Source: Eledone cirrhosa (Eukaryota). Taken from it: a DNA stretch of 64,000 nt. Below are positions 5,913 through 64,000 of this stretch, piece by piece (the stretch's first letter is position 1; each line of letters begins with the position of its first letter). A program made the position numbers and the translations under genes. The stretch lies in the NCBI GenBank assembly GCA_964016885.1, contig OZ024742.1, positions 329,468,001-329,532,000 on the forward strand. Direction: 5' to 3'. The notes under the pieces were generated by a model. The model was not told the origin of the DNA. It was given only the letters and a program-made list of their open reading frames with translations, and searched no databases.

Positions 5913-6213
<301 letters not shown>

Positions 6214-6242
6214 AAATGTGTGTAATCCTTGGTACAGTTAGG

Positions 6243-6377
6243 TATATTAAGACAGGGGGGAAGAAAAAAATGGCTTCACTTGTGCTTTCAACAAATTTCT
6301 TTTGGATTTTGTGAAGAAAATAAATTTGTTGAAAGCACAAGTGAAGCCATTTTTTTCTTCCCCCCTGTCTTAATATA
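6243..6377. repeat. Perfect 56-bp inverted repeat with 23-nt spacer
   Basis: 6243-6298 is the exact reverse complement of 6322-6377; 6209-6298 is also homologous to the reverse complement of 28233-28319. Confidence 0.92.
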
Positions 6378-6656
6378 AAATATATTATACGGAAAAAATG
6401 AAACGAAATTTCATTTCTCAATATTAGTACGACTGTTACTTAAATATAAGTATGTATACGTACGTACATATATGTATACAGACGTACAGTAGTATGTATA
6501 TATATATATATACATGCACACATATATATATTGTACGTATGGATTCACCGAACATTTATTATAATGCTCGGTGTGTTTGTAAACAAACATTCCGAATTAA
6601 GCCGTACAGTGTCTAGCAACCACCGTTGCTCATTTGTTCAACACTGACAAAGGAAT

Positions 6657-6695
6657 GCTGTAATAGTTTCAAGCTTTTTAGCTATCGTCAGCAAC
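6657..6695 (-). ncRNA. Minimal type I hammerhead ribozyme motif
   Basis: gttg-CTGACGA-t-agct-aaaa-agct-t-GAAA-ctat-TA-cagc; stem I gttg/cagc, stem II agct/agct; stem III has a mismatch. Confidence 0.7.
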
Positions 6696-7048
6696 GTATA
6701 CCTTCCTGCCAGATGGGTGAACGTCTGAAAGTATGAACTTTCCTTATGCATATTAACGGCTGAGCAGCCTAATTTGCATATCGTGTGAGTTAATCGGTCG
6801 GGGTACCGAAAACGATAAACGGAAATAATGAAACGAAATTTCATTTCTCACTCTTAGTTCGGCTGTTACTTAAATATAGTATGTATACGTACATACATAT
6901 ATGTATACAGACGTACAGTAGTATGAATGTATACTAATGTATATCGCCGATTAACTCACTCGATATGCTAATTAGGCTGCTCAGTCGTTAATATACATAA
7001 GGAATGTTTATACGTTCAGACGTTCAACCATCTGGCAGGAAGGTATAC

Positions 7049-7087
7049 GTTGCTGACGATAGCTAATAAGCTTTAAACTAGTACAGC
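7049..7087 (+). ncRNA. Minimal hammerhead motif (GAAA mutated to TAAA)
   Basis: gttg-CTGACGA-tagctaataagctt-TAAA-ctag-TA-cagc; palindromic stem III ACTAGT. Confidence 0.65.
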
Positions 7088-7220
7088 CTTCCTTTGTCAG
7101 GGTTGAACAAATGACCAACGATGGTTGCTAGACACTGTAGCGCTTAATTCGGGATGTTTGTTTACAAACACAACGGGCATTATAATAAATGTTCGGTGAA
7201 TGCATACGTACATATATAAT

Positions 7221-7409
7221 TGTTTCTACTGTTGGCACAAGGCCAGCAAATACCCAGTGCATTACTGGTACTTTATTTGATCGACCCCGTAGGGATGAAA
7301 GGCAAAGTCAACCTCGGCGGGATTTGAACTTAGATCGTAAAGGGACATAACTATGCTGGAAAGCATGGTGTCCGATCCTCTACCGATACTGCCAATCCAC
7401 CGCCAATCC
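7221..7409 (-). mobile_element. SINE family A, near full length, inside retrozyme array 1
   Basis: Reverse complement has A-box-like tggcagtatcgg, B-box-like aagttcaaatccc, central gcctttcatccctacggggtcgat, tail agtagaaacaattat. Confidence 0.9.
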
Positions 7410-7784
7410 ACAAATGAGCAACGATGGTTGCTAGGTACTGTAGGGCTTAATTCGGGATGTTTGTTTATAAACACACCGAGCATTATAATAAATGTTCGCT
7501 GAATCCATACGTACATACATAATGTGTGTATGTATGTATATATATATATATACATACTACTGTACGTCTGTATACATATATGTATGTACGTATACATACT
7601 TATATTTAAGTAACAGCCGTACTAAGAGTGAGAAATGAAATTTCATTTCATTTTTTTCCGTTTATCGTTTTCAGTACCCCGGCCGATTAACTCACTCGAT
7701 ATGCAAATTAGGCAGCTCAGCCGTAAATATGCATCAGGAAATTTTATACTTTCAGACGTTCAACCATCTGGCAGGAAGGTATAC

Positions 7785-7822
7785 ATTGCTGAGATAGCTA
7801 ATAAGCTTGAAACTATTACAGC
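7785..7822 (+). ncRNA. Minimal hammerhead motif (1-nt core deletion)
   Basis: attg-CTGA-GA-tagctaataagctt-GAAA-ctat-TA-cagc. Confidence 0.6.
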
Positions 7823-9159
7823 ATTCCTTTGTCAGGGTTGAACAAATGAGCAACGATGGTTGCTAGGCACTGTACGGCTTAATTCGGGATGTTTGTTTAC
7901 AAACACACCGAGCATTATAATAAATGTTCGCTGAATCCATACGTACATATATATATGTGTGCATGTATGTATATATATATATACATACTACTGTACGTCC
8001 GTATACATATATGTATGTACGTATACATACTTATATATATATGTATGTATATGTATGGATAATTGTCCAATTTGCTTATTGATGCATTCGTTATATATAT
8101 ATGCATCTCTTAATGCTCTTTGCGTATCAAGTCATTGCTAGATGTTTCAGTTGCCTTATATAGTATAGTTACCAGCATATGTTAGGAACTTGCGTGTTTT
8201 TCACAAACCATACCTATTTGAAAGAGAAAATAATTTCATATACGATTAATAGAATTAATTTCCTATATAGTTTCATAATATATAATATTGATAAATTGAT
8301 AATTGTTGTGGACAATTGTCGACGTGCCTTTTGCCAGAATAATATGTAATTATATCAGATGTGAAGTGGTGTATCTAATCGAGAAACTTATACATGTCCG
8401 TTTTATCACTGTGTAATCTAGATGTTGATTAAATTGAAAGATATAAAATCTAATCTATTGTCACCCGCTTGCATGACTAATATCGGAATTGAGATTATTA
8501 AACTTACAAATGTTAAATCCTTAAACATACAACGGTGCCTTAATCTATCTTAATATTGCATTAAATCAACCAAACAATTGACAAGCAGTTAATATCATCT
8601 GTATTGTGGCTGTAATAATCATTAAAATAGTATATCGGAGTTTCCGTTAGCTTCAGTAATGATATTCAACTTATATTCATTTGTTAGTTTGCCCCAAGTC
8701 TACATGACTTGGTAAAGGAGCATTATATCAATGTCAATACTTCGTTGGGTTATTTATATAGATCCAGAAAATCAATTTTGATGTTGATGAGATTTGAACT
8801 CAATGTTCTCTCATTCTGAAAACACTACAATTTGTTTTATAAGCCATTTTACTCCTCTTCTGGCTAAATAACATGATTAACATGTGAGAGAAACAAATCA
8901 ACGTATATATATTATTATACATTACAGTAGTAGAGAATCACTAGAACAATTGCCAGTTTCCAGAACAAAACGCCTAATAACAAAACGCCAACATGACTGT
9001 TGCATTACCTCTATAGCAAATAACACTTTGGTGGGCTGCATCCAGTAATACATAAACCATATTTTAGAAAGGAATGAGAAGAGAAATTGATTAATGCAAC
9101 TGCATCCAATCAAATTGGATTGTAACAATACGCTTTATTTCACATTGCTCCAGTTAGCT

Positions 9160-9555: not shown

Positions 9556-11614
9556 AAAAATGAATTCTACCTCTAAATCAAAGTTCAACCTTATCACACA
9601 CGGGGTCAGGTTTAATCCCCTTGAGGAATATGTTGCGACTGTATGTCTCTGCTGAATAGTTAATTGCACTAAATACTATGATCCGGCGTTTCTGTTATCC
9701 AAAATTGGCGTCGAAACCTTTGGAGATTCAACCCAAGTTTGATTATATGTCTACCCAGTCTAAGATCACTCGCGGTTAAATAACAAATGCAAATAAGATA
9801 CCTGAAATTCCTGATCTTAATGTATACTATCAGAAAGAAGACGTGATATATAAACATGCAGAAATAAAGTAGATTGTGTAAATATCCACATAGAATTTCT
9901 CGTATAAAGTGATAACATTTAACATTATTGGCACTTTACATTTCTCATGAATTATAATCTAATCGGTTAAAAGGGATAATCTGGCAAAAGTCGGAAATCA
10001 AGGATGACGAAATAACAGTGATATACATGTAACAACATTTTGTAAGATAATCATGTGTGGAAACCGATAAATCAATGCTAGAGCTAACAATTATTCATAA
10101 ATGAGGATGGAAACTTTACACATCTGGTCAATGAATCGTAATTGGTATATTGCATGGAAAGGATTACACACGGAAATGATAAAAGACAAATGGAGTATCC
10201 TTTCCGAGATAGAATTTCTAATGGAATACATTCTATTTGTGTTACTTAATGAATAATTTTCAGGGGGTTATTAAAGATATTAATTAATCCATTACTATTA
10301 AGATTGTGTAAATATCTACATAGCATTTCTCGTATAGAAAGGTTCTTAAGAAAGGTTCTTATATGAAACTAAATCAGACGGTTTTAATCTAAATAATTTG
10401 ATTTGTTTCATAGAACTAGAAAAGGTTTTCATTTTGTTCATATTAAAGGGGTGAAACACACCATTTCAATTTTTGTCGTCTGGTCATAAATGCAATGATC
10501 CCACAGCGCCTCAAGGAAAGTATGCATTGCAACATTACTCCGTGACTTTCTCCAGAGATTTAACAGTCATTACTTCTAGAAATGAAATATGTGCTGTAAA
10601 GTTCATAACGTTGACGAGTGAGACTGTTTGACATGAATGAATTTAATTTGTTCTGATAGGGTATCAATCTCTAGATGCTATCAAAGACTTACAACATTGG
10701 ATCATAGCAACTGTACCTCATTCTTGTTATTTCCACCACGAATGTGATTAACACTTGCGCACTGGGTTTTGATGAGAGAATCCATAACGCAAACAAACGA
10801 CTTCAACATAAATGTAACATTAGGAAAGTTTTAAATCAACCCGAATGAAAGAGTACACGAAACTACACCAGCTGTCATTGACTATTACATTCAGTAATTG
10901 CCATTTCTACATATACTAAGTATCATTCAGTTTTAATATCACGTCTCTACTTAGATGCCTAATTAAATGATTAGTAAGTATTGTCATTCCTTGTAACGTT
11001 TAAAACAATTCATATCATCTCACGAAAAATAATTTCCCATTACAGTATGGAAAAAGCACCATGATATGGATGAGTACCAGTCCTCTATGTTCAATCCTAC
11101 TCAATGCTGATGAAGGTAAATGTGAACTCGCTCATGTAGGGAGATAAACAGAGATGAAGCAATTATATCTAAAGTTCGTTAAGCAGGAGAATTACACTAA
11201 GAAATTATATTCCTGTCCTCACAAAAAAAGTATTATGCGTTAGTTTTATAACACGATAAATATATATATATATAGTATATAAATGTAAAGTTAACACTAA
11301 GGACTCAATTTATTCATATATAGGAGCTACCTCTAACAAAGGTAAGATTTAATACACACAAACATAGTTTTAAAAATGCCGCACTAGCTAATACATCTCT
11401 AGCTGAAATAATAAATAGTTATAGAAAGAGGAATATAGAATATGACCTGACCTGGAGTGTGCTCAAAAGGGCCACCACTTATCAAAATAGTAGAAATGAA
11501 TGTAGATTATGTTCCCAAGAACTTTTTGAAATAATGAAATCTAAGGATATCCTATTAAATAAGCGAGAGGAATTAATAATATCGTGCAATCATAAACTGA
11601 GAAAAACCTTTAAA

Positions 11615-13486: not shown

Positions 13487-14425
13487 GCGTGTGTGTGTGT
13501 GACCGCGTGCGTGTGTTCTTGTGTGTGCGCGTGTGTCTGCAGTGTTAGTGGAAAATTACGTTGAACATTGGGAATGCGGGATATATATCTAGATAATCCG
13601 TTACTTAAAATCAAAACGATGATTCTTAACGCAGGTTAGTCAATCGAGAAGAAATTTCAGCCAAGCTTTCCCCAATCACACATTACAATCATAAATACAA
13701 GGCGATGAAGACACAATTTTCACTCTGGTATGTAATGGTAGGAATATCATTTTGAATAATGTTAGGAAGATGATTTTGAATAATGGATCTGAATATGATA
13801 TCCATTTTATCTCATATTCCATAATACAAGAAATAAAAAAGAACTCGAAAAATGTCCTCCTTAATCTGAATCAACCTGAACATAAAAGTTTCGAGTGAGG
13901 TTCCTTCTCTTTATTATTTCCACAAAAGAAGCATGTGTTTGGCTGTTTCTTTTCTACTACCCTCGAACTGCAAAGTCTTGGGCCTGCTCCTGTTTTCACT
14001 AAATCCTACCAACTTTTATTTTAACTGAAATCCATGATAGCTTACCTCATTCTATAAAACGGACCAACCAACAAACACCTAATTATTCGTACATCAAACA
14101 TCGGTTATTAGAAAGTCAACAATTCGAAACGAAAATCTCTTATGACATGCCAGCCTTATTTTTGTATTCACTGATATGTCATAATGACTCCGGTTATACA
14201 GTCTCATGATGATGCTGCTTTAGAACTATAACGCTATCCTGTTTACTGAAAAAAAAAAATAATAATAATTTGAACCAGTGCCCTACATTGTCTCACCTTC
14301 TACAACAAAACATCCGCTCTTTTTGTCTAAAATCTTTCCTGCTCGCTTGCAGCTGTCGCAATTTACCACTTTGTAGTCAAGCGTTTTCGTGTAGTAAGTG
14401 TAGCAAACATTTTTATCAATATCAC

Positions 14426-15970
14426 GGCCGCTCTGAACGTTTGGTATCTAGATGATGCTACATTGGGCGGGCCGGTACGGACGGTCTGCCAAGACCTTCA
14501 ATCGGTGATTCCTGCCCTGGTGGGAATCGGCCTCCAGGTCAACTCGGCCAAGTTGGAGGTGGTGAACGTCAGCCTCGATGCTGCGAGATTTGCAGCCTCC
14601 GACTTGGACGTGCGGTCCATTCTCCGCCAGGTTCAGGTGACCCCTAAAGAGGATGTCCTCATCCTCGTGTCACCGATCCACCCGCCGGCCATCCGCTCCA
14701 CCATCAGGTCCAGGCTTCAACAGCTCCAGACTCTCATGAGCCGACTGGGCTTGATTGACGGCCACCCTGCTCTCTTTCTGCTGAGGAACTGCTTCGCCAT
14801 GCCGAAGCTCCTCTATACACTCCGCAGCGCTCCATGCTACACCCAGACATCTGTCCTCGCTGACCTCGATACTTGTATCCGAGCAGCAGCCGAGGGGATA
14901 TGCACCGTAAAGTTTGACGACATAGGGTGGCAACAGGCTACTTTACCGGTCAGGTATGGCGGCCTAGGCCTCCGATCCCTGATCTCACTAGCTTTGCCGG
15001 CGTATCTTTCGTCGGTAACCTCGTGCCGCGTCCTCGTCAACAGGGTTCTTCAAAACACAACAGAACCCCCTGTGTTCAGAGAACGTGAGGCCGCCTGTGA
15101 GACGTGGGACCGGCTGGGACATAGCCCAGTAGACGTCCCTCCTCCTTCTTCCCCTGTTGACGTCAAGTCCCCCCAAGGCACTTGGGATGCCATCCAGTGC
15201 AGCCTGGCCTCAGACAGGCTCACGCGCCAGCTCGACCAGCACCGCCTTGATTTTTTTCGTGCGGCCTCCAAACTCCACAGTGGTGCCTGGCTCCATGCTC
15301 TGCCCTCCTTCTCCACTGGCACGCAGCTAGAGAACCATAGCCTGCGAATCGGCGTTTCCCTGAGGCTCGGCCTCCCGATCTGCCAGCCACACCAATGTCG
15401 CTGCGGTTCCACCGTGGACTCTTTCGGCCTCCACCCGCTTTCCTGTCGCCACAGTGCCGGCCGTATTCCACGCCATACTGCCCTCAACGAGGTCATTAAG
15501 CATGGCTTGGACCCTGCAGGCTTCCCTTCCCAGCTCGAGCCGGTGGGGCTGGATCGAGGGGACCGCAAAAGGCCAGATAGCATGACCATCTTCCCGTTCC
15601 GCTGTGGCAAACCCCTCGTCTGAGATGCCACTTGCACCGATACATTTTGCAGCCGCAACCTGGTGCAGTCTGCGACTGACCCAAGTTCTGCTGCACGTCG
15701 GGCTGAGGGGGCCAAACTCCTCAAATACCTGTCGCACTCCGACAGGTTTGCGGCGTTCCCCTGGCAGTGGAAACTTCTGGTGTCCTCGGCCCCAGGGCTA
15801 CCTCCTTACTCACCACCATAGGCGCTGAGCTGGCTAGCAGCAGGTGTGAGCTCCGTGAGTTGGAGTGGCATTTCCAGCGCGTCTCCCTTGCCGTCCTCCT
15901 GGAAACGCCTTCTCCATTCTGTCCGCCGGGGCTGTGGGTAGGCCCCATCGCGTACCAATACATTAGTTAA
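14426..15970 (+). mobile_element. CRE-like non-LTR retrotransposon, 5'-truncated (RT C-terminal half, CCHC knuckle, restriction-like endonuclease)
   Basis: WYLDDATLGG; QATLPVRYGGLG; CRCG..VD..GLHPLSC..RH..N; EPVGLDRGDRKRPD; ETSGVLG; FQRVSLAV; GC-rich island; premature stop at 15621 and frameshifts. Confidence 0.9.
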
Positions 15971-27935: not shown

Positions 27936-28318
27936 GTGTCTGTACGTGTGTGTGTGTTGTTATGTATATATACTTTAATTCCTCTGGACCTTCATCATCA
28001 TCAACAGTCATTAACACCACATGCCACACCTCAGACACATCCAAATCTCTCTTGTATATATAGTCACACATTTCAACACAACCTGATCTCAGTTTGACAA
28101 TCGCCACAGACAGACGAATGCGAGAAAGTTCTCCAAACCAAGTTAACCAGGAATTTCTAACATACTTCCCACCGAAGGTAACAAAGAACTTACTGGATCT
28201 ACCAACTCATAATATTATAACATTAAATCATAAATTTGTTAACACTACAAGTGAATTCATTCTTTTTCGTTTTTTTCAAATGTACCTAACTGTACCCAAG
28301 GATCTCACACATTTTCCA

Positions 28319-28405: not shown

Positions 28406-28557
28406 ACTACATAAAAACACATATCAACACAGATATACATATATATAAAATAAGAGGGATCAGATGTTGTTTACTCGAGAGAAGGCTACGTTGGTATGGA
28501 CACGTGATGCGCATGAAAGTCGATAGCTGTATAACAAAGTGCAGGGCAATAAAGATA
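28402..28557. repeat. 156-bp inverted duplication of 27300-27455
   Basis: Reverse complement matches with one mismatch and spans the LINE/flank junction. Confidence 0.92.
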
Positions 28558-28559
28558 TA

Positions 28560-30596
28560 TATATGAAATATGCACAGTCACGACTAATAACTCTTCAGAA
28601 ACCTATGTAGGCTCCACTTCTAACTGCTTCAAAATCAGATATAACTCGCACATCCACTCGTTCAAAAAGCACAGCCTAGCCAACTCCACCTCACTTTCTA
28701 GCTACATACACTATCTAAAATCTAAAAATAAACCATACACACTCAAATGGGAAGTGATAGGCAGCGCGACCTCGTACAAACCACCTAATAAATTCTGTAA
28801 CCTCTGTATTCTAGAGACACACAATATTATCTTCTCCAACCGTAACCTACTTAACAAAAAATCTGAGGTGTTTGCAACTTGCCAGCACCGCCTCAGACAT
28901 TCCTTCCAAAACTTTAAGCCCTATATATAGCAATGTCGGACTGGAACCTAACACCACATCTAGCATCAAACACCAGAAACACACCCTATACTACATACCC
29001 AACACTAGCTGATCCATTATAACACAAACAACGACATCCCTCTGGAACCCTTCGCAGGGAAAATACCCATTTATACCTCTACGGCAGGTGTGACAACATC
29101 CACCCACTTGATGGCACTACACCGCTCTAAGGGTAATTTGAGCATGAATTGATCGGTTGGATGGTGTTGGGCAGAGGAAACACCTTCCTTAGACAGATGT
29201 AAAATGATTTAATCGAGTAGCGCTGTTGACCAGTAGGACCGGGCTGCTGAGCGCAGTGAGTGAATGCAATGCAACTGCCGTGCGGGTTGTACGTATATGG
29301 ATGATCTGACGGTCAGAGAGGGGTCGCGAGGACTGCGGATTGACCTTGGCCTGCCTGGGGACGATTATCTTTCGACATCCAATGTAGCAAGCGATGACCC
29401 AGATCTTACCAGAGATCATTGGGTCCTGAAGCAATCCTGCAATCACCGCGCCTGGTCATATGAGCAGACTACAACCACAGAGATCATTAATTTAGAATCC
29501 TCGCTCATCATCTATAATTTCCATTTGTAGCACCTTAAGATGGGTTAATCCACCTTAATAATAATATAAACTACTCTATAGTTAGTACACTTTATGCTTT
29601 AAAAGTCTCTCTTGGAAGGTGCACCTCACCATAGAATTTAGGGTCTATATTGGGACACATTTTAATGGCTAGATATAGAAACCCCAGAGTTACCTCCCCG
29701 CATGCATTAACTCCCCTTAGCCACACACACACTTCCGGTATTCAATGGCGTTTCTCGAAACGTAACATCCCCCTGTATCGAACTAAAGAACACCAGACTA
29801 CGATCTCTTACTGGATTGTCGTGGATTATGTGAAAGGCATATAATCGAAATATACACTCCCTTGACCATGAAAATGCCGAAGTACATGAATTACTTGACA
29901 TCCCTGCGCTGTGCATCTCCAATACTTATAACACTTTTAATGCTTGCACTATCTTTAATGCTTATAATATTTCTCCACACACAGACTATATCAATCATAT
30001 AAAGACTTTGCCACCAGACCTACCAACCTAACACTCTTATTTACCTACCTAAGTGCCTCTACCACACATATCTCTCTGCCACACTATATAAACAAGACGC
30101 ACATGCGTGCCACACATATAACATTTGCACTATATAACCACTTATCTTCATGTTGTACTTTAACCTATATCTTTGATTTTTGATTGTACCTATTAATATA
30201 GTTGTAATCTCGAAGTGTGTACTGCCACTCTAAATTCTGTAATGAATGTTGACCCACAATGTTTGAATATGTATCAATGTTTGAATATGTATTTGGTATG
30301 TCTCTCGGCTGAAAAGGAGGTCATATAACTGTCCATGCATTAATAAATTGCTCCGAAGAATCCAAACCTCGGTTTGGAGGAAACAGCTGTAAGCACAATA
30401 ATGTTTTGAACAGTTCTTTGATTCTTATATTTCATATAACTGCTCTGTAAATCATCTGATGTTTTTACATTGAGCTACTTAACTTACTGGTAATAAGGTA
30501 GTAATACATTACTGCCTACCACTATTTAGGGTGTGTGTAAAATACTTACAACTGCTTAAGGTTTTGTATTTACATAACCATAAATAGTATAACTAA

Positions 30597-30600: not shown

Positions 30601-30658
<58 letters not shown>

Positions 30659-30764
30659 CGAACATTTTCGCTCTGCATGGCTGAATACAATAAATGTAAT
30701 CTGAGTTTTTCGAATATTAATAATTACATTTAATTCGTTTGCAATTATGCATACAACCTTCAAT

Positions 30765-30807
30765 CTGCAGACACTAATGTTTCTGGGTTCACCCTTCGTC
30801 AGTACAG
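30765..30807 (-). ncRNA. Minimal type I hammerhead ribozyme, intact core
   Basis: ctgta-CTGACGA-a-ggg-tgaa-ccc-a-GAAA-cattagtg-TC-tgcag; 5-bp stem I, near-palindromic stem III, GUC triplet. Confidence 0.82.
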
Positions 30808-30875
30808 CTCATTGTTCACCTGCCAAACTGTCAGAGCTAGTGAAAATATTTGCTATTTTCAAAATTACACAGGGA

Positions 30876-30974
30876 CTGATCGGCCTGATTTGCATATTAG
30901 CAGACTCGCTGATCAGTCAGATCTGCATATTAGCAGATCCACTGATCAGCCAGATGTGCATATCAGCAGACTGG
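30876..30974. repeat. 33-bp minisatellite x3 carrying an octamer motif
   Basis: ctgatc(g/a)g...gat(t/c/g)tgcatat(t/c)agcaga three times; exact ATTTGCAT at 30888-30895. Confidence 0.88.
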
Positions 30975-31096
30975 CCAGTCACTTTCCTGTGTACGAGCGA
31001 TAAATGGCCGGCTTTGCTAAATTCAAATAAAAAAGAAAATGTTCGCTCTACATGGCTGAATACAATAAATGTAATCTGAGTTGTTCGTATATTAAT

Positions 31097-31278
31097 AATT
31101 GTTTCTACTTTAGGCACAAGGCCAGCAATTACCCAGTGCATTACTGGTACTTTATTTTATCGACCCCGTAGGGATGAAAGGCAAAGTCAACCTCGGCGGG
31201 ATTTGAACTCAGATCGTAAAGGGACGTAACTATGTTGGAAAGCATGGCGTCCGACTCTCTACCGATACTCCCAATCCT
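31097..31278 (-). mobile_element. SINE family A inserted in retrozyme-like element 2
   Basis: Highly similar to 7221-7409. Confidence 0.92.
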
Positions 31279-32727
31279 CGATTCGTTTGCAATTATGCAA
31301 ACAAGCCTCAACTTTACAGCCATGTCAGTAGAATGAACCCTTCAGTCTTGCTCGTGTGTTGGCATGTGAACAGAACATTCTACTGACATGGCTATAACAT
31401 TGAGGCTTGTTTGCATAATTGCAAACGAATCGAATGTTATTAATATTCGAAAATCTCAGATTACATTTATATATATATGATTCCTTTTATTTCAATCAAG
31501 GCATTGTAGAGTTGTTGGATGTGCGTATTTTACACTATATTGGTTGTTAACAACTAACTTGCGAACAACTCATAGAAAGTTGAAGAAAAGCCGGAAAAAT
31601 CAAAATTAAAACTATATACATATATATAAATGTATCGCAAGTATTCATGGTTTGGGACGAGGAAATATACAAAATATAAAAACTAATTACTAACAACTGT
31701 TTCTTTGTAGGCGGCTATCGATTGCAGCGGTGTGGTGGCTTCCCCATTAACTCCGAATTTAGGATGTTTCTAAATTAGGATGATTTATGAGGGCACTTTA
31801 TGAGAAACGAACTTTGGAATCTACTCACTATTTCGCCAAGGATTATTAGATATTTATACAGTGCAGAAAGTTCTTTCAGATTCAATTATCCCAGCTTTCC
31901 AATGTTATTGGTTAACTTTCCTTCTGTTATATACAGATAGTATTTCGCTCTATTCATCTGTCAATATATCCACTTCTATACGACCATGTATGACATCCCT
32001 TTACTTTGTAAAAAATAAATATTTGACTCTAGAAGGGTTTTGTTGGCTTGGCATACGTAAACATTGCTTAGATAAACATTACAGATATATCTATTTATCC
32101 GTTTTATCGTAGGTATCTGCTGAATTGATTTATATCTGTATGTGTACGCATGTATATAGGTCGACTGTGCACAGTATTTGATTGTGTTTGTGTGCATTTC
32201 CATATTTGTGGTTGTGTAAGCCTTCATATTTGTTTAGCGCGGGATATAGAAGATCTTTATAGAATGTGGATCCTTGTGGAACAGCACAATACACTTGAAA
32301 TGACAAGTTCTTATCTCAATAATGAATTTGTGATAATAGAAAATGCATTCCCTTGAACGGAAATATATAAATAAGATGTCAACTCTTCTTTATTTCAAGA
32401 GGATTAAGATTCATATGCCCGAGAATTAAGGCAGTAAGACTTTTAAAGTATGCATGCTTTATAAGTAGTTAACGATAGCTATGTGTATATCATCAAAAGA
32501 GGCACTTACATTGTAGATATATAAAAAGCTACTCATATCACTGCATATATGAGTTGCTTATTTTAGACCTGTAACTCAGCGTGAAATGGTAGTGGCACTT
32601 TATTTTCAAACGGTGTTTCTTGGGCATTTTATGCTGGACATGGACATTTTACGTCTGGACATGGTAGATTTCCTTCAGAGATTGACAGAAAGTGAGAGAG
32701 AGAGAGAAAAATATATGAAGGAAAAAT

Positions 32728-33540: not shown

Positions 33541-33862
33541 TAATATCTTCAGTCGCATGTAAATTATGTGCAAAAAAGATATCATGTACAATAAGACTTT
33601 CGAATCAGGTGTATATAATCGGATATTGAAGAGACATCTGGATGCACGGCAGCTGAAAGAATGACCGCATTATGGAGTGCGGATACTGCTCGCATACTTT
33701 CCTTGTCTCGTCTCAGCACCGATGCTTTTTAAAGCACATGGACAAAATATGGTTGTGCGAAAGGACACTTATCTTTATGGCAGTAGGTAAATGCTATTCG
33801 AACATAAAAAAAGTTTGCCAAAACATGCAAAAAACAGTTTTCGTTAATTATGTCGGGCACCT

Positions 33863-34340
33863 CTTGGTGGCGTTATCTGCCAGTGTCATCCATAGCTCTG
33901 GCTTTATAAACGTTTAATTATAACCACATCGTATTTCTTTAGAAATACGGAATTCAAATACATATTTGTATAAAGCTATGTTCGAAGCTAAATTCTTATT
34001 CTATTCCATTTTAAGTTGAGCCAACTTATATAGCTTAATATGCAAATAAGATTAATCACCTCATTTACACCGACGAAAATAACCTATATATTTTCGTCTG
34101 TTTTAAAAGTCCGGCAGTTGCAAGAGCGGGAGAGATCGTCCTGACGAGAACCATTTGAGTTCGCAATGTATAGACGGTTGTCCTTCTTACATTTTGCCGA
34201 GCTCTGCTTGGTGGCGTTAGCTGCCAGTGTCATTCATAGCTATGACTTTCTAAATGTTCATTTATAAATATACCTTATTTCTTTAGAAATACGATATTCA
34301 AATATATATTGGTATGCAGCTATGTTGGAAGTGGAATTCT
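33863..34340 (+). mobile_element. Retrozyme-like element 3: ~345-bp unit, ~1.4 copies
   Basis: cttggtggcgtta(t/g)ctgccagtgtcat...aattct repeated at 33863 and 34208; octamer 34040-34047; decayed HHR at 34135. Confidence 0.7.
34135..34178 (+). ncRNA. Decayed minimal hammerhead
   Basis: atcgtc-CTGACGA-gaac-catttga-gttc-GCAA-tgta-TA-gacggt; 6-bp stem I, 4-bp stem II; GAAA mutated to GCAA; stem III ATGTAT could be CpG-decayed ACGCGT. Confidence 0.68.
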
Positions 34341-35079
34341 AATTATATAATATATTATTTTTACATGTAAAATTTAATATCCAATTTATATTGTTTATAT
34401 ACAGACGTCATGATTCGGCATATTGTAAATCATTAATATAGACAAATATATGTTAAATGAAATATAGTGTATGCAAGTAGTGAATTCGTTTAACGGTCTT
34501 CCTTCCAAATCAAGGAGATGCTGTGACAAAGGTATAAATAAACAGAAGCATATGAAAAACAGAATTTCCCCCTACTGACACAGAAACAAACACACACCCA
34601 TATAGGGAAACATACATATTGACACAAAGACACATAAACGCACATATATTTACATGTGAATTTGTGTGTGGTTGTGCCTATGTGTGTATATCTAAAAAGG
34701 GTGCGTAGTAATTATGATGGTAATATAAATATATGATGTATAAGTCAGTAAATAGATGAGAAACAACTACAGATATATTAAATATAAAAAAAACTCAATT
34801 AAACCAAAACCGATACAAATCTAATTTATCTATTCATAAAATTGGTTGCTGTCAAAGTTTCATGTCCATCATGACCCATTAGAAAAATAAAGAAATTCAA
34901 GCAATATGTAGAATGTTTATCTCAATAAAGTATTTGAAAAGGTGGGGTGGGTATTTTAATATCACGTGGTTCGTGGTGCTCCTTACTACGGTTATTTTAG
35001 TAAAGTACTGACGGCAGTTGCTGGGAATCTGGTAGAAGCAAAATATAGACAAATCTATATGTTCACAAAATGCTTAGCA

Positions 35080-39408: not shown

Positions 39409-39581
39409 GTTTTTGCCGCATTTTTGACTTGAAATATTTTAGCATGATAGTGGGGTTTAGAACACTCCAAGAAATGGAAAAAATGAGTCTTGACGTGAAT
39501 ACTGAGCCTCTTCTATTTCTTAGAGGGTTCTAAACACCACTATCGGGCTAACATTTCTTTGGTCAAAAATGCGGCGAAAGC
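39409..39581. repeat. Imperfect ~70-bp inverted repeat
   Basis: ttttgccgcatttttgac..gatagtggggtttagaac vs gttctaaacaccactatc..gtcaaaaatgcggcgaaa. Confidence 0.85.
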
Positions 39582-39625
39582 CTTTGGTCCTAATTTCAAA
39601 CTTACTCGCTGTTTCAAAATATACT

Positions 39626-39678
<53 letters not shown>

Positions 39679-43879: not shown

Positions 43880-46800
43880 CTTTCTGCCTGACGCGTGGAA
43901 CATCGCCGGTAAGATTTTTGTAAATTTATATACGAAAAACAACACAACAAAAACACAAATAACAATACGCATATATCAACACAAACAACAAGAGTTTGAT
44001 GGAGGTCATCTCCCAAAACCCCAAGTTGGAGACGGAGGGCAAAACTTTCGTCAAGGCAGAATCGTCTCCACACCTTAAACTTATAAGTGTTTCTATGGAA
44101 ACCTATAATGTCCTGAAAAATAAATTTTCACAGGACGTGGGCAACCCCTGCCAGAAACCCATCAACCGCGTCCTGTTCAAATGTTTCCCCACCCTACCCA
44201 ACACCCCATACAGCACCCAAATGGAGATTGAACAACCCGATCTCCAGGAAACGAAAAGGTAAGTGCATCTTTCGTCCTTTTTCTCCAACTCTTCTTCACC
44301 AACATGGCTAGTTTACGAGTTGGAAGCGTGAATGTACATGACCTAGGGTTGCCCTGGAAACAGGGCAAACTTTTAAAAGACCTTTGGTCAGACGGTATGG
44401 ATGTCATAGCCATCAATGTGTCCAGGATCCATAACAGGCAGTAACTAACCCCCATCTTCGATGACTTTGAGATCTAGCATCTCTCTGTCAGCGAGGAGGT
44501 GGAGGTGGAGTGGCTGTCATGTTTCGGAAGAACCTGGACATCAAAGTACAGCAAGTACACTTGGACCCGGAGGGTAGACTGGTAGTCCTAGACGTGAACT
44601 GTATTGGAGGTGGAGCCTTTAGACTGGTGGCCGTTTATGCGCCGACCGAGCAATCGCAATCACGGTCAGACTTCTTTAAGCGTCTAGAGACTTTTCAGGG
44701 AACGTCTCGCTCCTTACTTTTAGTGGGGGACTGGAATGGTATCCTAGATGCACGATGGGACTATGTGGGAACATGTCCCAGTAGAGGGGGGTGCAACAGC
44801 CTCAAAACTTTAATCGGCCAATTCCATCTGGCCGACAGGTATCGACTGGATTTTCTGACTGCACAACAGTGGATGTGGGCAAACCGCAACGGGACATCTA
44901 GATCGTATTTAGATAGGTTCTTCATTAGAGAAAGGGACAAGATGTTAAGCTGTCCACGAATGCAGATGGTTGCCTATTCAGATCACAAATTAGTCGTCTG
45001 CTTAGTCAACCGTTATATAACACATAAAGAAGGACCCGGATACTGGAAGCTGAACGTGTCGTTGCCGGCACCTAAAACTTACAGTGAACGGATAAGTAGA
45101 CTAGTCAAGCAACAGTTAACGGGAGACATCGTCAACAATAGATGGTGGTACTCTCTCGAGAAAGCAATTACAATAGAATCGATAGGGATTAGCAGAGAGT
45201 TAGCCTTAGAGAGAAACAAACTAGAAAGAGAACTAGTAGCCAAGTTACAGGAGGCACTTAGAAGTGGTGACGCGACTAGAGTGTTAGCGTTGAGAACGGC
45301 ACTGGACCAGTTCGTCGATGTGAAACACGAAGGCTGCTCTAGGAAACGAAAGAGCGAAAGCTGTCAGCTGGGCCCGAGTGGCGGAGGCAAAATGTAGCAA
45401 CAAGTCCACGATTTGGTCTTTGAAAGACCAAAACGGACGCGTGCTACTTGACCCCAAGCAAATGTGCGGGGCCTTTCACCAGCACTTTGCGCGACTGTTT
45501 GAGCAGAACGACGGTGAGCTGACCGGGGCAATGGACTTTAGTTCATACCTCGACGGCCTGCCGCGCCTCTCGAACACGGACGCCGAGTTCTGCGAAAGTC
45601 TGATCACGGATACTGAAATACGGGACGCTCTGGGCCGCTGCGGGAAACGCAAGTCACCCAGTCTAGATGGTCTACCCTATGAGTTTTACATAGGCATGCC
45701 GGACTTGTTCTCTGGCGTCCTCGAAGCCGTCTACTGCAATTGGCAGCAGAACGGGAGAATTCCCAGTTCTGCAGGCAAGGGCGTAGTGACGCTGATCAGG
45801 AAAGACGAGAACAAGGGGGACAAAATTAACAACTTCAGGCCTATAACTCTGCCCAACACAGAGTTAAAGATTTTGGCCAAGGTGCTAGCGACGAGGTTGG
45901 CGCTTGTCGTCGAGAACGTGGTAGGGAAAGGGCAAACGTGGGCAATCCCGACCAGGTCCATACACGGCAATCTCCACCTCGTGCGATACATCATCGAGGG
46001 GGTGGGTAGTAAACCCGGCTTCGGTGGGGCTCTGATCAATTTGGATCAGTCTAAGGCATTCGATAGGGTAGACCATCGATACGTGGAAGCGGTTCTCAAG
46101 GCGGCCGGTTTCGGTCCCGTGTTCAGAGGCTGGATCGAGGCGATGCGCACCAGCATCTGCTCGAGGATCAAGGTGAACGGCTACCTATCGGAGCCGTTCG
46201 TAATCATGCGTTCCATACGACAGGGGTGCCCTCTCTCCTCCATTCTGTACGTATTGACTCTAGAGCCACTGCTGCGGAAATTGGAGCTGTTGCAGGGCAA
46301 CCCTCTAGAACCGGGACTGCGCAAAGCGGCGGCGTCTTATGCCGACGACTTTACGGTAATGGTGTCGAGAACCTCGCAAATCGGGGTAATTGGCAACTTA
46401 CTGAAAGAATACGAAACGCTGACGGGAGCAAAACTAAACCTGGACAAGTTTGTCGGTTTGCAACACGGTACGTGGAGATGCAAACCGATGACGCCCGACA
46501 GCGTCGTAGGACGCTGGACGGACGGACCGGTGAAATTTCTCGGTGTCTGGTTCGGTCCAGACCTCCAGGTCGAGAAAGACTGGAACGAGGTCACGGCCAA
46601 GGTGTTTGCACTCACCCAGAAGTGGGTAGCGTGCAAACTGTCCTTAAAAGGTCGAGCGGTGTGGCGAACACTTTCATAGAGTCCGTCATCTACTACCGCT
46701 TGACTGTCGTGACTAGTCGCTGTGAACACCTCGCCAAGATGGAACGCATGCTCTTCCAGTTTATGTGGAAGAAGCAGGGTCCGCTGGTGAGGAGATCCGT

Positions 46801-47947
46801 CTGCTGTCAGCACCCTTCCAGCGGAGGGCTGGGAATGCCATGGTGTTGATGCGCAAACATGCGCTGAGGCTGCGGCATCTCCAGGTATTCCTCACCGACT
46901 CCCAACCGGTGTGGGCACCGTTTGTGAGACAGGCTTTCGCACAGCTCGTCTCGCTGACGGAGCTACAGTCCTGGGTCAAGAAAAGACTGAAAACGATACA
47001 TTGAATGCGCTCAGGGGCTCACAGTCCTCTGGAAAGCGGGCGTTGCAATCAGTGGAGATTCCACTTCGACATTCTATAGAGGGATTGTACGTTACAAGGG
47101 CGACGACGTGCTTGGAGAGACTCTGGGTGTCGAAGACGATGAGCTCACCAGTCTGTTTGGTAGGACTTTCCGCCCGGGACCTATGGACAACTTCCAGATG
47201 TCCCTGGCCTCGCAGTGCTACCGAGGAGTTCTACCGGTTCGTAACAAGATTTACAGGCACGGACGCCGCGGAAGTGATCCTTCCAAGAGGACGTGTCGAA
47301 GATGCACGTAGGACATTGAAACAGTCCTGCACGGAATTGTACACTGCCTGGGCGTAACCGACCTGTGGAACTATGCAGAACAACTGCTGTCGCGTTTACG
47401 AGAAATTCAGTTGACTGCCGTGTCTATAGTAAGGATCAAACCGCCAGCCTCTTTCAAAAACATAAGAGAGGCGGTTTTCCTCTGTACGGTGGCTATGGTG
47501 AAAGAAGTTATATGGTGGATGAGATTGAGAGGACTAAGGACAGATGCCTTTCTCTCCGGACAACAATTGATTCCCATCTTTAAGTATCACTTTTAGAAGG
47601 CGAATCAGAGTGGAGAGAGAGGCACTGCACCGCAGTAAATTTACTGATATGTGGGTGAATGAAGCGAGAAGGGCCCAAGTGATTGGGCTTTCTCTGTTTA
47701 TAAGCCTATAGGTTGAAGAAGAGAGCAAAAGGAAGAAAGGAGCACTTGCAGAACACGCTCCTGCAGTTGAGGGTTGTTCTATCGACGGGGTATTAAACAG
47801 CCAAATTTGTGGCGCTTTCCCCCTATTGGGGATTTCGATTGTTGTAATTGTTTGTTTTTATATTTTTAACACGACTGTATGTAAAATCCCCGGCATGTAT
47901 TTCTATTGTCCCCTTTTCTTGTGCGCCCTTGTGGCAAATAAAGAAAT
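43880..47947 (+). mobile_element. Tx1-clade (L1 superfamily) LINE, near full length, ORF1 largely missing
   Basis: ORF2 motifs listed in the next feature; AATAAA at 47936; (TCTA)n on both sides. Confidence 0.92.
44304..47711 (+). pseudogene. Disrupted LINE ORF2: APE endonuclease, reverse transcriptase, C-terminal Cys region
   Basis: MASLRVGSVNV; VYAP; GDWN; SYLDRF; SDH; GPGYWKLN; KSPSLDGL; NFRPITL; LDQSKAFDRV; RQGCPLS; YADD; GGLGMP; CRRC; several stops and frameshifts. Confidence 0.93.
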
Positions 47948-49343: not shown

Positions 49344-49377
<34 letters not shown>

Positions 49378-49380
<3 letters not shown>

Positions 49381-49747
49381 GTAAACGGAATAGAAAATGC
49401 TGACAAATTGTTCACAGTTGAAAAATGGTTTAATTAGGAATAAAAGAATATTAGTGATTGTATGGGTTAGTATTCAGTTGTGGTTTTAAGTTTTTAAGTT
49501 TTTACCGGTTGCGCATTTCTAAATGCTTTTCAAAAATAATTTTGAGACAGAGTGTCCGTGCTGTCACGGACACTCTGTCTCAAAATTATTTTTGAAAAGC
49601 ATTTAGAAATGCGCAACCGGTAAAAACTTAAAAACTTAAAACCACAACTGAATACTAACCCATACAATCACTAATATTCTTTTATTCCTAATTAAACCAT
49701 TTTTCAACTGTGAACAATTTGTCAGCATTTTCTATTCCGTTTACCAA
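49378..49747. repeat. Perfect palindrome: 183-bp arms, 4-nt spacer (ctgt)
   Basis: 49378-49560 is the reverse complement of 49565-49747; starts immediately after a (TA)n tract. Confidence 0.95.
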
Positions 49748-49782
49748 TATATAATAACTTGTGTGTTACACCTCTATTCTTT

Positions 49783-49849
<67 letters not shown>

Positions 49850-59271: not shown

Positions 59272-59273
<2 letters not shown>

Positions 59274-60470
59274 AAAAGATGAATATAAAATGAAAGTGAT
59301 TTTATAAAGGAATTTAGTAGGTATTCACATATGTTTCTGTACCAGACGGAATACCTATGTATCGCTGCTTGCGTAATCATATAATGTTAGCAAGTATTCG
59401 ATAGCAAATATATAATCAGTTGTTACTTCTTCAGAGATATTGGATAAATTGGAAAAAATCAGAAAAATCAAAGTATTTATATTAGTTAACCAGCGTTATG
59501 TAATAACACTCGCAGACAAGGCTTGGCAGCCTCGCGAAAATGTCCAACAATTTAACCTAAAATGGGATATAATAGTTTATGCCCCTGCATATTTCTCAGG
59601 ACAAGAATTTTCTAAATTGTGTAATATGGAAATATTTTGTATTATGAAATCCAAAAATATGTTATTAAATAACAGAATAGAGTGATCGTTATACTGTAAC
59701 CATCGCTTGAAATCTACATTTTAATATTACAGACGCTACCAGGATTGAACGCCAGTCTCCATCTCTGTTTGATTATCAAAAATACATATTAACATTCTCT
59801 ATTAGTCTTAATTCTATCAACTCTTCTATTCTTTACCATGCAATATAAACTGCTATAGATAAAATGAGATTTCTTAATTCAATTCTCTAATGCATATACC
59901 ACCAGGCTACCAGCGTTGATGTTATACATTAGCAGTGAAAATCTCTCTCTTCCTTACTTGAAACTTTATATCTGTAGTAATACTACTACACCAAACGACC
60001 AGCCCTGTTCATTGTTCAACTGGTCAAATATAGATTAAAATAGGCACTCCCAAAAATACTTATTTAGATAAAATAAGCCATATACTCATTGTATTCTCAT
60101 TAAAAACCTTCTATATACTTGTTTACCAGCAAATTGAATTGCCATCTGTCATATACTATCTCTTCTCTTCTTCCTTTCTTGCAACTGATATAAATACTTT
60201 GATTTTTCTGAATTTTTGCAATTTATCCAATATCTCTGAAGAAGTGACAAATGATTATATATTTGCTATCGAATACTTTCTAACATTATATGATTACGCA
60301 AGCAGCGATACATAGGTATTCCGTCTGTTACAGAAACATATGTCAATACCTAATAAATTCCTTTATAAAAGCACTTTCATTTAATATTCATCTTTTCTAC
60401 ATTTTCTCCGGAATATAATTTATACTCGTTTAGCAAACCTACACGTACGCTGTACATCTCTAACGTGACG
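59272..60470 (+). mobile_element. Naiad-type PLE with inverted 5' pLTR
   Basis: 59272-59487 is an inverted copy of 60183-60398; internal LKWDII..KLCNME..LLNNRIE..YCNH. Confidence 0.88.
60229..60350 (+). ncRNA. Hammerhead motif with ~90-nt stem II insert
   Basis: CTGAAGA 60236-60242; stem II base gtgaca/tgttac; GAAA 60333-60336; palindromic ACATATGT; GUC triplet; AATAAA at 60352; stem I weak. Confidence 0.6.
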
Positions 60471-60507: not shown

Positions 60508-60692
60508 ACAAAGGAATTGTGGTAAGGAACCAGATGGACCATAACGCACCAGAGTACTCAATACTTAGGGTAGTAGAGTGGGAAATAGGAAAAAGTAAGA
60601 CCCCGACGGCAGAGCTCAAGCCGTTTCGATGGCTATTTCTCGAAATACCCGTCGAAAGGGCTTGAGGTCAACCGACGGTTTCTTACTTTTTC
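60506..60692 (-). mobile_element. Fold-back family F, copy 3
   Basis: Homologous to 49194 and 39196; hairpin gaaaaagtaaga...tcttactttttc; sits inside (TA)n. Confidence 0.82.
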
Positions 60693-61598
60693 ATATATAT
60701 ATATATAACGGCGATGAATTAGTTTTGCGAGGTTTTTAATATGAAATCGTGTGTCGAAACAAATATTGTTATATTAAGGGAGGGTCATATTTGTCTAATA
60801 TTGCCAGAATTAATAACAGAACACACTCACTGTTTGGTTGGTTTTCGCTTTTCGCTTCTGTGTCTTTTATATCGGTTAATTGAATTTATTTGGTCCTCAA
60901 TGTTGCCATTGACTGACCAAAGGTAAAAAATACAGATACAATATAGACACAAACACATATATATATAGTCTATCAAAGTTCTCTCGTTGCACATCTGCAA
61001 CACCGTCAGTGGTGCTATTGTTTCCTCCCGTTGCATTGTATGTCTACGCCATCTTTATTTAGTCTGTTTATATATTTATTCATTTGTTTATTTTTTTGTT
61101 TTTATCTTCTTTGCGCATGTGTTTGCGTGTGTGTATAGTGTTTTGTTTGATGTGTGTTCGTGTTTGGGTGACTGTGTATTGGTTAATGTATTCTATATTT
61201 ACTAGTGTGTGTGTTTATATGTGTTTGTTGTTATTGTGCTTGTCTATGTATTTATTTATTTATCTATTTATTTATTTATTTATACTTCTCTTAGGACAGT
61301 GTTGTTTGTTTGGGGGCTGTTGTTATTCCATTCATTGTTTCTGTTTAGCCTTGGCCTTCTAAGTTCTATTTCACTGTCCTCTCTGATTTGCCTATCTGCT
61401 GGGTCATTTCCATTTTTAGATATTATTCTAATTTCTATTATGTCTATGTTACCATCGTGTTGTTGTCTGGCATGTTCGTATAGTACTGAACCGTTTTTTA
61501 GTCCTTTTAGTTCCCCCAGTGTTGGTCTATCCTTTCACCTATGCTACGAGCTGTCTCGCCTATGTATGTTGTTGTCATGTTTCTGCAAGTACCCTCTG

Positions 61599-61852: not shown

Positions 61853-64000
61853 ATCATAGATAGAATATTACCCACTCTTAAATTGAGATCTAGTTTGAGC
61901 TTATGGAAAGATACAAACGAGATCATTGAATGCTACACGAATATTGAAGATAAGAAAAACTATAAATTCATCCGGTTGGATATTACTAGCTACTATTTCT
62001 TCTATAACACCTAACCTTCTAAATAAGGTCCTCTCATATGCTTATAATCATACTGATGTAACCACAAATGAAATAGATATAATTTTAACAACCAGAAGAA
62101 CTCTCATTAACTTAAATAACGAATTTTGGACACGTTCAGATAGAGATTGAAACTTTGATATCACTATGGTGGCATCTGATTCCGCGAAAATCACAGATCT
62201 TCTGGGAATTTTCATATTAAACATGATAAGTAGAAAACTGCCGGAGATTATCGGTGGTTTATATAGCGATGACATTTTATTTACTGTGGTCAAACACAAC
62301 TATATAGAATTAAATAGAGTTAAGAAAAGTATAATATAATTCTTTAAAACAAACGACCTTAAATTAGAAGTAGAAAATGGTACCAAAATAGTTTAATTTC
62401 CTTGACGTTACCTTTAACTTAAACACTGGCTTCTATTAACCTTTTCATAAGCCTAATGAAAACTTAAATTATGTTAGTAACTATTCAAATCACCCTAGAT
62501 CTGTAAAACAAGCTATAGTAAATAGTGTGCAAAAACGTATTAATAAAATATCTGATAATAAAGATATGTTTGATAAAAATGCTGAATACTACAAAAACGC
62601 ATTAAAAAGAGCAGGATATGAATAATATAGAATATGTAGATAATAACAATCCAAGTATTATTCCTAATAATAATACTAAAAATAATAATAACATATATAA
62701 GAGTAACTCTAATAATTATAACTCAAACACACATACGCTAAATAAATCGAGAATACGAACTAGATCTAAACCAGTCATATGGTTTGCACCCCCTGCTCCG
62801 GTCGCAGTTAAAACACCAATTACAAAACTATTCTTTAAAACTCTTGACACCTCTTTCCCTACTCAATATAAATACCCTTCCATTTTTAATAGACTTGCCA
62901 TTAAATTCGCAAATTCTACAACCAGTAACATGCCCCAAAACATCGCCAAATTAAACGCCAATATGCTAAAACCAAACCAACATAATGATCATAATAATAG
63001 AGTTAACATTAATGATACTAAACAAAATGTAATTGTAGAAATAAAAATAATTGCCCATTGCAAAATAATTGTTTAGATAGTAATTTGGTTTATAAATGCA
63101 CCGTAAAAACTGACCACAAAACATACAATTACATTGGATCAACCTCGTTCACATTCAAGGTTCGTTTCGCGAATCATAAATGCTCATCTCGAATTCTAAG
63201 GAGAAATCATCCACGTCTTTATCACAGCTCATATGGTCTTTAAAAGAGAAGAATTTAGAATACTCCATTCTTTTGAGAAAACCTCGGAACTGTGGAATTT
63301 ACCGCAACTCTAGTATATAAAATAACTGCCCGCTCTGTACAATGGAGACCCTGTTCATTATTAATAATTATGAGACCCTAATTAACAAAGAAAGTGAATT
63401 ATTCTCTAGTTGCCTCCATAAAGCTACGTCCACTTTTTTAGCCTCACATAAAACGAGAAAGAAATAACCAATAACAACTCGGTTACCAGGAATATATAAT
63501 CAACAGTAAAAAACATCAATGGCCTTTAATATTGCTTTATTTTATAACTATCTATAGAAAAAACAACGTTAAAATGAATGACAATATTTCAATTAACATG
63601 TCTAAACATTGATACACACAACACTATTCGTTAAATTTGATCAACACCAAAATTTATTTATCTCATTATGTCTATCTATAATTTAGTACAATACCTAATC
63701 CTTACATATTTATGGAATTTATTTATCTGTGAATTGTTAATACATTTGTGATCTCTTTTAAATTTTAGTTTAATACCCAATCCATAAATGTTTATGAAAC
63801 TTATCTATAACTCCACATTTTAATGAGTTTTTTTATGTATTATTTAAAGTATAATGTAGCATATATTTCTTTTAAATATACTTACTGCACTATAAAATCT
63901 AAATTTTGAGACGGATTCAAACTTATATATAAATGTGAATTTTTCGCTGTACTTTCGATCTCTTATTTATTTATTTATAATATAATGTATTATAATATAT
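61853..64000 (+). mobile_element. Naiad-type Penelope-like element: disrupted RT + GIY-YIG ORF (61853-~63467) and 3' UTR running off the window
   Basis: KFIRLDITSYY; FDITMVASD; GGLYSDD; FLDVTFNL; SNHP; VIWFAPP; CNCRNKNNCPLQNNCL..VYKC..YIGST; CPLC..E; LINKESE..C.H. Confidence 0.92.

Follow-up and report, generated by a model that had tools for sequence, protein, structure and literature searches.

A probable decayed retrozyme insertion with a Penelope-type layout in the genome of Eledone cirrhosa

Structure of the repeat locus

The window, that is, the whole 64-kb stretch of DNA analysed here, is animal DNA rich in microsatellites and contains several LINE and Penelope-like element (PLE) remnants. 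Among the LINE-type sequences, 44471-47357 holds an endonuclease-like ORF with an RVT_1 domain (E 2.9e-24) after it, and 14331-15623 is an ORF piece whose 430-aa frame at 14331 had no Pfam match. At 6389-8036, and nowhere else in the window, lies a repeat family with a unit of 430-432 bp, which self-BLAST and alignment resolved into two arms of one unit, with five pieces in all (A, B, C, D and E). The parts of the locus are as follows:

6389..6933, minus strand: inverted arm of 1.27 units, partial unit B and then full unit A, with its 5' end at the junction and its 3' end at 6389
6389..6443, minus strand: one-sided 3' extension (tail) of 55 nt, on the left arm only; the right arm ends at 8036
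6926..6945, no strand: head-to-head junction, with about 12-20 nt of degenerate TA-rich filler and a repeated 7-nt word
6946..7215, plus strand: partial unit C (0.63 unit), with a one-mismatch octamer at 6965-6972
7216..7404, minus strand: tRNA-like SINE of 189 nt, with a B-box-like word near 7321-7330 and an AT-rich 3' end
7410..8036, plus strand: tandem part of the plus arm, 1.45 units, D and then E
8037..8060, no strand: TA-rich right flank, likely the target

The preliminary description had proposed a 432-bp array with an internal strand switch, and self-BLAST recovered this tandem-plus-inverted layout and added the SINE and a phase jump. The measured period is 430 in the minus arm (6386-6504 versus 6816-6933, offset 430) and 432 in the plus arm (7410-7608 versus 7842-8039, 95%, offset 432), and the minus arm is close to the 1.25 units originally estimated. 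The arms are 92-94% complementary to each other in BLAST matches of 266 nt and 497 nt (E 0.0), the longer of which pairs 6441-6933 with 8039-7545 at 94.0%. Both 5' ends, in the sense of the hammerhead, face each other at the filler, and sequence and alignment place the head-to-head switch within the interval of about 6925-6945 that had been given for it. The plus arm had been described as about two units; tandem units are present, but the array is interrupted, with the SINE lying between 0.63 and 1.45 units. Measured from where C ends, unit D starts again 113 nt earlier in the unit (7107-7220 versus 7410-7523, 91%), a jump that a long duplication, the loss of about 320 nt or template switching could each explain. 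Pairwise identities are 93.0% for A-E, 91.9% for A-C, 92.3% for C-E and 93.4% for D-E, with the longer pieces at 91-93%, and unit C is 91.9% identical to both E and A over 272 columns. On the left, the insertion ends about 11 AT-rich bases away from a separate hairpin insertion (6210-6377), and no target-site duplication was discernible in the right flank.

Hammerhead motifs and their damage

Three hammerhead motifs lie in the arms:

6644..6711, minus strand: hammerhead A, type I; C3 at 6691, predicted cut after 6661
7033..7100, plus strand: hammerhead C; C3 at 7053, predicted cut after 7083
7769..7835, plus strand: hammerhead E; C3 at 7789, predicted cut after 7818

Motifs A (6691, minus) and C (7053, plus) were detected by a structural scan, and E (7789, plus) was recognised by alignment to both. 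Copy A has a stem III 16.2 G>T change (ACTATT), a change at stem I position 1.5 and one altered loop II letter; copy C has lost G12 by a change to T (TAAA) and is also changed at stem I 1.5, while retaining the palindromic stem III ACTAGT; and copy E combines a deletion of N7 with the same stem III 16.2 G>T change (ACTATT) and two stem I changes. Alignment thus reproduced exactly the differing lesions first reported for the three motifs, namely ACTATT in two copies, TAAA with ACTAGT in one and a core deletion in one. The core elements CUGANGA, GAAA and NUH, in type I order, are complete in the family majority (see below) and in copy A; C is without G12 and E without N7. In predicted folds, the family majority has five of five proximal stem I pairs, and the local copies have 4, 4 and 3.

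Covariance searches with Rfam gave no match at the cut-off across the 64 kb and no hammerhead match for copy C; the best hit, from scans of the damaged copies only, was Hammerhead_HH9 on copy A (11.5 bits, E 3.1, cut-off 52). Low-scoring Rfam matches of miRNA type on TA-rich hairpins were regarded as chance. The bare CTGANGA..GAAA pattern is not above chance in frequency (5 found versus 2.6 expected), and hence the case for these ribozymes rests on stems and repetition. A 21-nt core pattern had no matches among metagenome contigs.

Family-majority ribozyme from public contigs

Three public contig sets (X1-X3) were aligned to 6540-7510 at 85% likeness, which leaves out 6389-6539 and 7511-8036 and so covers neither E nor the outer ends. 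The three sets represent one sample and are counted once; they contain 43% of the window's sampled words and may come from another individual or species. In each set some 96,000 contigs aligned, including those matching the SINE, and most variant sites listed in the unit were covered by tens to more than 100 distinct contigs of this one sample.

We found that the lesions of the local copies are not those of the family. At stem III position 6663, the pairing letter makes up 99.6% of summed depth (73 contigs in X1; 73-76 per set), and at the G12 position (7074), G makes up 99.9% of depth (87 contigs, X1). At stem I position 1.5, G accounts for 98.6% (6656) and 96.5% (7088) of depth in X1, with X2 and X3, from the same sample, being alike; this G is gone from all three local copies. 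In loop II the family depth divides into AATA (62%) and AACA (38%), and the other core positions had no variant among those listed. The intact ancestor that the preliminary description had held to be reconstructable, with a stem III base resting on one copy, is supported by the family majority, which restores G12, the palindromic stem III with its paired base and the fifth stem I pair. An unpaired stem III in the family, named there together with absence of cleavage as the outcome contrary to this proposal, is not what the contigs show.

The family-majority helix I has 5 proximal pairs, a 6-nt bulge and then 5 + 4 distal pairs, helix II has 4 bp over a U-U pair, and helix III has 1 bp with a palindromic tetraloop. 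In canonical metazoan hammerheads, helix II has been described as 4 bp long and helix III as 1-2 bp with a palindromic loop (PMC4209133). As judged from sequence, these data support a family ribozyme of the canonical animal type I hammerhead class, intact and of the dimer type. Its stem III resembles that of axolotl HHR_Amex1 (1-bp helix III with a palindromic tetraloop), and it shares with HHR_Amex2 a U-U at the base of helix II, as both are described in PMC7229834. The family-majority monomer has a most stable predicted fold other than the hammerhead (-16.6 kcal/mol, versus -6.5 for the hammerhead), and the stem III palindrome is predicted to form a 6-bp intermolecular duplex at -6.8 kcal/mol, compared with +2.2 and no duplex for the A/E variant. 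With one stem III pair and a palindromic tetraloop, such a ribozyme should work well only as a dimer. A point against activity is that, according to a preprint (10.64898/2026.07.22.740005), only one of nine predicted Xenopus retrozyme dimers cleaved when tested.

The contigs also bear on whether the strand switch could be an assembly error between two repeat loci, which we regard as very unlikely. In favor of an error, no independent contig among those listed spans the junction, around which the alignment left out 6878-6912; low depth at 6903-6935, considered as a sign of a single-copy junction, was set aside on account of the same gap. An error would fit poorly with a junction that has its own filler, with outer ends that differ by the tail, as at other loci, and with private changes in all five pieces. 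A contig joint between 6633 and 7116 that appeared as "opposite strands" was discounted, being taken for contigs that map partly to copy A and partly to copy C.

SINE within the plus arm

The SINE at 7216-7404 has 11 further BLAST matches in the window (76-96%) and no Rfam tRNA match. Together with the general repeat content, it is reminiscent of octopus genomes. It ends in the contigs as loose ends at 7216 and 7404, and its summed depth is about 10x that of the unit. Two explanations of its position were rejected. Against a recent 113-bp target-site duplication made by the SINE, C and D differ at 10 of 112 columns, as any two units do. Against a fixed SINE-retrozyme chimera, the contigs disagree at the loose ends of the SINE (agreement 0.41-0.46), and the SINE is oriented differently with respect to the ribozyme at the two loci. 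When seven copies were compared in 21 pairs, the copies at 7216-7404 and 31090-31279 were the closest (94.0%; next 90.3%), and both sit within hammerhead repeat insertions; their closeness perhaps reflects just the youth of nested insertions. In each set, 61-69 contigs link the SINE end 7404 back to 7216, which suggests close or tandem SINE copies elsewhere.

Octamer and other hammerhead families

Upstream of hammerheads A and E lies a shared octamer, and two further hammerhead repeats were found in the window:

6772..6779, minus strand: octamer ATGCAAAT, 88 nt before C3 of hammerhead A
7701..7708, plus strand: octamer ATGCAAAT, 88 nt before C3 of hammerhead E
30657-31470, core at 30802, minus strand: second hammerhead repeat, period 375, with an intact core, a GUC site and a 3-bp stem III; tandem plus inverted arm
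33847-34348, core at 34141, plus strand: third hammerhead repeat, period 344, about 1.45 units, with GCAA instead of GAAA

All three hammerhead families carry ATGCAAAT, at 88, 93 and 101 nt before C3. This combination of octamer and hammerhead occurred 3 times versus 0 in 100 shuffles, for a pattern chosen after the alignment had been seen; the octamer was upstream of none of 21 other CTGANGA sites and of 0.26% of all positions. Between octamer and ribozyme, only short blocks are common to the families. The second repeat is unlike the first in sequence save for short blocks, has extra octamer-like 33-bp repeats at 30875-30972 and gave no Rfam hammerhead match. The second and third families are probably distant relatives, given an alignment score of 50 against a shuffle maximum of 33. 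Because the pattern was post hoc and these two families are kin, the octamer shows conservation and not three independent events. A possible fourth retrozyme at 9787-10336 (an octamer with a 36-nt direct repeat, spacing 430) was rejected, as it has no hammerhead and no wider similarity.

The internal promoter of newt satellite 2 reportedly includes an octamer upstream of the ribozyme. By analogy, the octamer found here is a candidate snRNA-type promoter element for retrozyme RNA. Newt satellite 2 has been cited as having an internal snRNA-type Pol II promoter (Coats, Zhang and Epstein 1994, as cited in PMC2220036), and it resembles the present families in being a tandem hammerhead repeat with a weak stem III; it differs in lineage and sequence, and the promoter here is only a candidate.

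Penelope-type anatomy of the insertion

PLE insertions have been described as often holding an inverted, 5'-truncated copy, mostly head-to-head, together with a 30-40-bp tail at one end, and as targeting TA-rich or (TA)n sequence (PMC8557442, PMC3846280). The tail has been attributed to two reverse-transcription start sites at AT-rich nicks (PMC11167929), and in Schistosoma, hammerhead pairs on opposite strands are reported 100-700 bp apart (PMC4209133). The locus at 6389-8036 is like the described insertions of endonuclease-bearing PLEs in its partial tandem, its inverted, 5'-truncated, head-to-head copy, its one-sided extension, comparable to the optional tail there, and its AT-rich or (TA)n target, and, as in PMC4209133, its hammerheads lie on opposite strands a few hundred bases apart. 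It differs from them in that it has no RT or GIY-YIG ORF, its hammerhead is canonical and not minimal, and its tail is 55 nt long, versus the 30-40 nt described. The right end lies in a TA run; at the left end, AT-rich sequence separates the locus from a neighbouring hairpin insertion that is also TA-anchored.

The 16 inverted BLAST matches in the window collapse to 13 inverted structures, one of them 98% identical. In eight of the 13, a (TA)4 or longer run lies no more than 9 nt from an arm, and 5 of the 12 other than the present locus show a TA run at one arm and an extension of 32-77 nt to a TA run at the other; for comparison, a TA run is found within 75 nt to one side of about 12% of randomly chosen positions. 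Four of the 13 have no such TA or extension link. The five structures, at 30690-31470, 39411-39579, 49372-49753, 59272-60398 and 60585-60696, are listed here with the fuller interval of each:

30657-31470, minus-strand core: inverted structure of the second hammerhead repeat, with a 32-33-nt tail and (TA)n at both ends
49372-49786: inverted structure between TA runs, with a 33-nt one-sided extension
59272-60470: inverted structure between TA runs, with a 72-nt one-sided extension
39411-39627: inverted structure between TA runs, with a 48-nt one-sided extension
60508-60696: inverted structure between TA runs, with a 77-nt one-sided extension

Hammerhead scans found none in the last four, and at three other loci of the window the tail is 32-33 nt long. 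The inverted-arm layout is thus common in the window and not special to this locus. The earlier remark that tandem-plus-inverted layouts are typical of Penelope integration agrees with what is described in PMC8557442, PMC3846280 and PMC4209133 and with the same layout at other loci of the window. The insertion adjoining the left end (6210-6377, with its hairpin at 6243-6377) has 61-bp arms that are 98% complementary and a 33-nt one-sided extension to the left (TA)n run, and matches 28232-28318 at 76%. Two likely remnants of Penelope-like ORFs were noted elsewhere in the window: a GIY-YIG remnant at 28553-28930, with a weak Pfam match below the cut-off (E 0.01), and 62606-63076, without an informative Pfam match, which we take to be Penelope-like from its linker motif alone.

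The strand switch would be uninformative about integration if a tandem retrozyme or satellite insertion had been rearranged later as DNA, through fold-back or inverted duplication of D and E. Such a history would account for an inverted arm that matches D and E nearly end to end and for the stem III lesion common to A and E, which makes up 0.4% of family depth, together with a second common change (at a CpG). We consider it quite unlikely: the A-E identity of 93.0% barely exceeds A-C and C-E and is matched by D-E at 93.4%, two letters common to D and E are absent from A, and an inverted arm with a tail recurs at unrelated loci, the second hammerhead element included. Integration of the Penelope type is preferred for these reasons.

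The two arms could also form a long RNA duplex. For a transcript of 6386-8040, the predicted fold pairs 6444-6933 with 7545-8036 over 471 pairs, so that the long dsRNA foreseen for a transcript across the locus stands as a prediction; but it is limited to a read-through transcript, because promoters within the units would fire outwards, giving two RNAs of the same sense, and fold-back would need read-through from outside. Retention of the locus for a function, as a source of long dsRNA or small RNAs or as an A-to-I editing substrate, would be in keeping with this duplex but has very little probability in our estimation, given that the arms now differ by 6-9% and show no compensating changes, palindromes of similar or better quality are frequent in the window, the internal promoters would face outwards and no host exon was identified nearby.

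Assignment to the non-LTR retrozymes

The unit is 430-432 bp long with 35-36% GC and one hammerhead, and no open frame longer than 73 codons was found in six frames of the doubled unit. Folded as a circle, it has a z of -7.7 versus 30 doublet shuffles, part of which is accounted for by a TA-rich hairpin. The stretch from D to E completes a full 432-bp cycle. Of the 24 contig pieces listed, 3, which each differ at 11-16 letters, continue beyond the end of the tail into a following unit, which indicates that other copies are tandem too. The family therefore shows the features by which non-LTR retrozymes, a class that the preliminary description had not named, are recognised: a tandem unit of 150-450 bp, GC below 50%, one type I hammerhead, no ORF and many copies. 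A retrozyme locus is counted as active in the above preprint (10.64898/2026.07.22.740005) when it has two consecutive units with complete hammerheads; at 6389-8036, all three motifs are damaged and the SINE lies between C and E, which speaks against an active copy and not against family membership.

As described in PMC7229834 and the preprint 10.64898/2026.07.22.740005, animal non-LTR retrozymes are likewise short, non-coding tandem units of low GC, with few units per locus and many copies, with one canonical type I hammerhead per unit and with PLEs in the same genome. The present locus is unlike them in its inverted arm and tail and in that all local ribozymes are damaged. The words "inverted" and "opposite" are absent from the main text of PMC7229834, and in the portion of the preprint available to us, "inverted" occurs in one reference title only and no tail is mentioned. 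Within the open literature, that is, leaving aside closed journals, repeat databases and the supplement of PMC7229834, we found no report of cephalopod retrozymes or of inverted retrozyme insertions; the supplement may list such cephalopod families. In the main text of the Octopus vulgaris repeat annotation (PMC13282606), the word "ribozyme" is absent.

An unlikely alternative, to which we give somewhat more weight than to those above, is that the unit is a pseudo-LTR or end piece of an autonomous PLE, in which case the locus would consist of truncated ends and would not be a self-standing retrozyme. Every insertion hallmark is of PLE type, PLE-like remnants occur in the window, and 24 of 57 Xenopus retrozyme families are reported to match PLE ends (preprint 10.64898/2026.07.22.740005). 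Against these points stand the full 432-bp cycle from D to E without an ORF, the diverged contigs that also go from tail into next unit, and a canonical ribozyme, not of the minimal PLE type with long helix II described in PMC4209133; an autonomous PLE at the locus itself would also call for an RT plus GIY-YIG ORF between pLTRs, and no ORF was found there. Taken together, we consider it highly probable that 6389-8036 is a decayed insertion of an animal non-LTR retrozyme with a Penelope-type layout, presumably moved by Penelope-like enzymes.

History and proposed mechanism

Copy A differs from the family majority at about 10 of 276 positions and copy C at about 14 of 273, a divergence which implies that the insertion is old. 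Rare letters are distributed among the pieces as a mosaic, with two common to A and E (one at a CpG), two to D and E, one to C and D, and one to A, C and E. This mosaic is not given by one pass round a single circle; a multi-unit template or later conversion between copies would give the pattern.

In the retrozyme model, intact tandem copies elsewhere would be transcribed, possibly from the octamer-marked internal snRNA-type promoter. Two neighbouring hammerheads in the transcript would pair via the palindrome of stem III and cleave the RNA just 3' of the GUA triplet, and the cleaved monomers may circularise. A Penelope-like reverse transcriptase and GIY-YIG nuclease would then copy RNA of more than unit length into TA-rich DNA, on both target strands, and the outcome would be a tandem arm and a shorter inverted arm joined 5' to 5', with a tail on one side. 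Insertion of the SINE into the plus arm would have come at around this point or afterwards. Each unit would then have drifted about 4-5% from the family majority, with all three ribozymes becoming damaged.

Significance

As a locus, 6389-8036 is a real, ordinary and dead retrozyme insertion with Penelope-type anatomy. The dead copy itself is of little weight; the family to which it belongs adds another retrozyme, apparently one not yet catalogued. That a unit without an ORF shows insertion anatomy of PLE type backs the proposal that PLE enzymes move retrozymes, which is repeated in a review (PMC11722881). The octamer, whose spacing is nearly fixed in the three families, provides a candidate promoter for retrozyme RNA that can be tested, and it is the one lead worth following.

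On this basis we suggest, tentatively and at a little short of even chances, that invertebrate retrozymes share a conserved two-part module in which an octamer-based snRNA-type promoter precedes a type I hammerhead by about 90-100 nt, an arrangement hitherto cited for newt satellite 2 alone, and that they form insertions with the full Penelope signature of inverted 5' arm, one-sided tail and TA target. If this were true, the polymerase system making these circular RNAs would be named, and there would be direct anatomical evidence for the Penelope-driven mobilisation of retrozymes, which in the sources cited here is otherwise backed by co-occurrence and phylogeny only.
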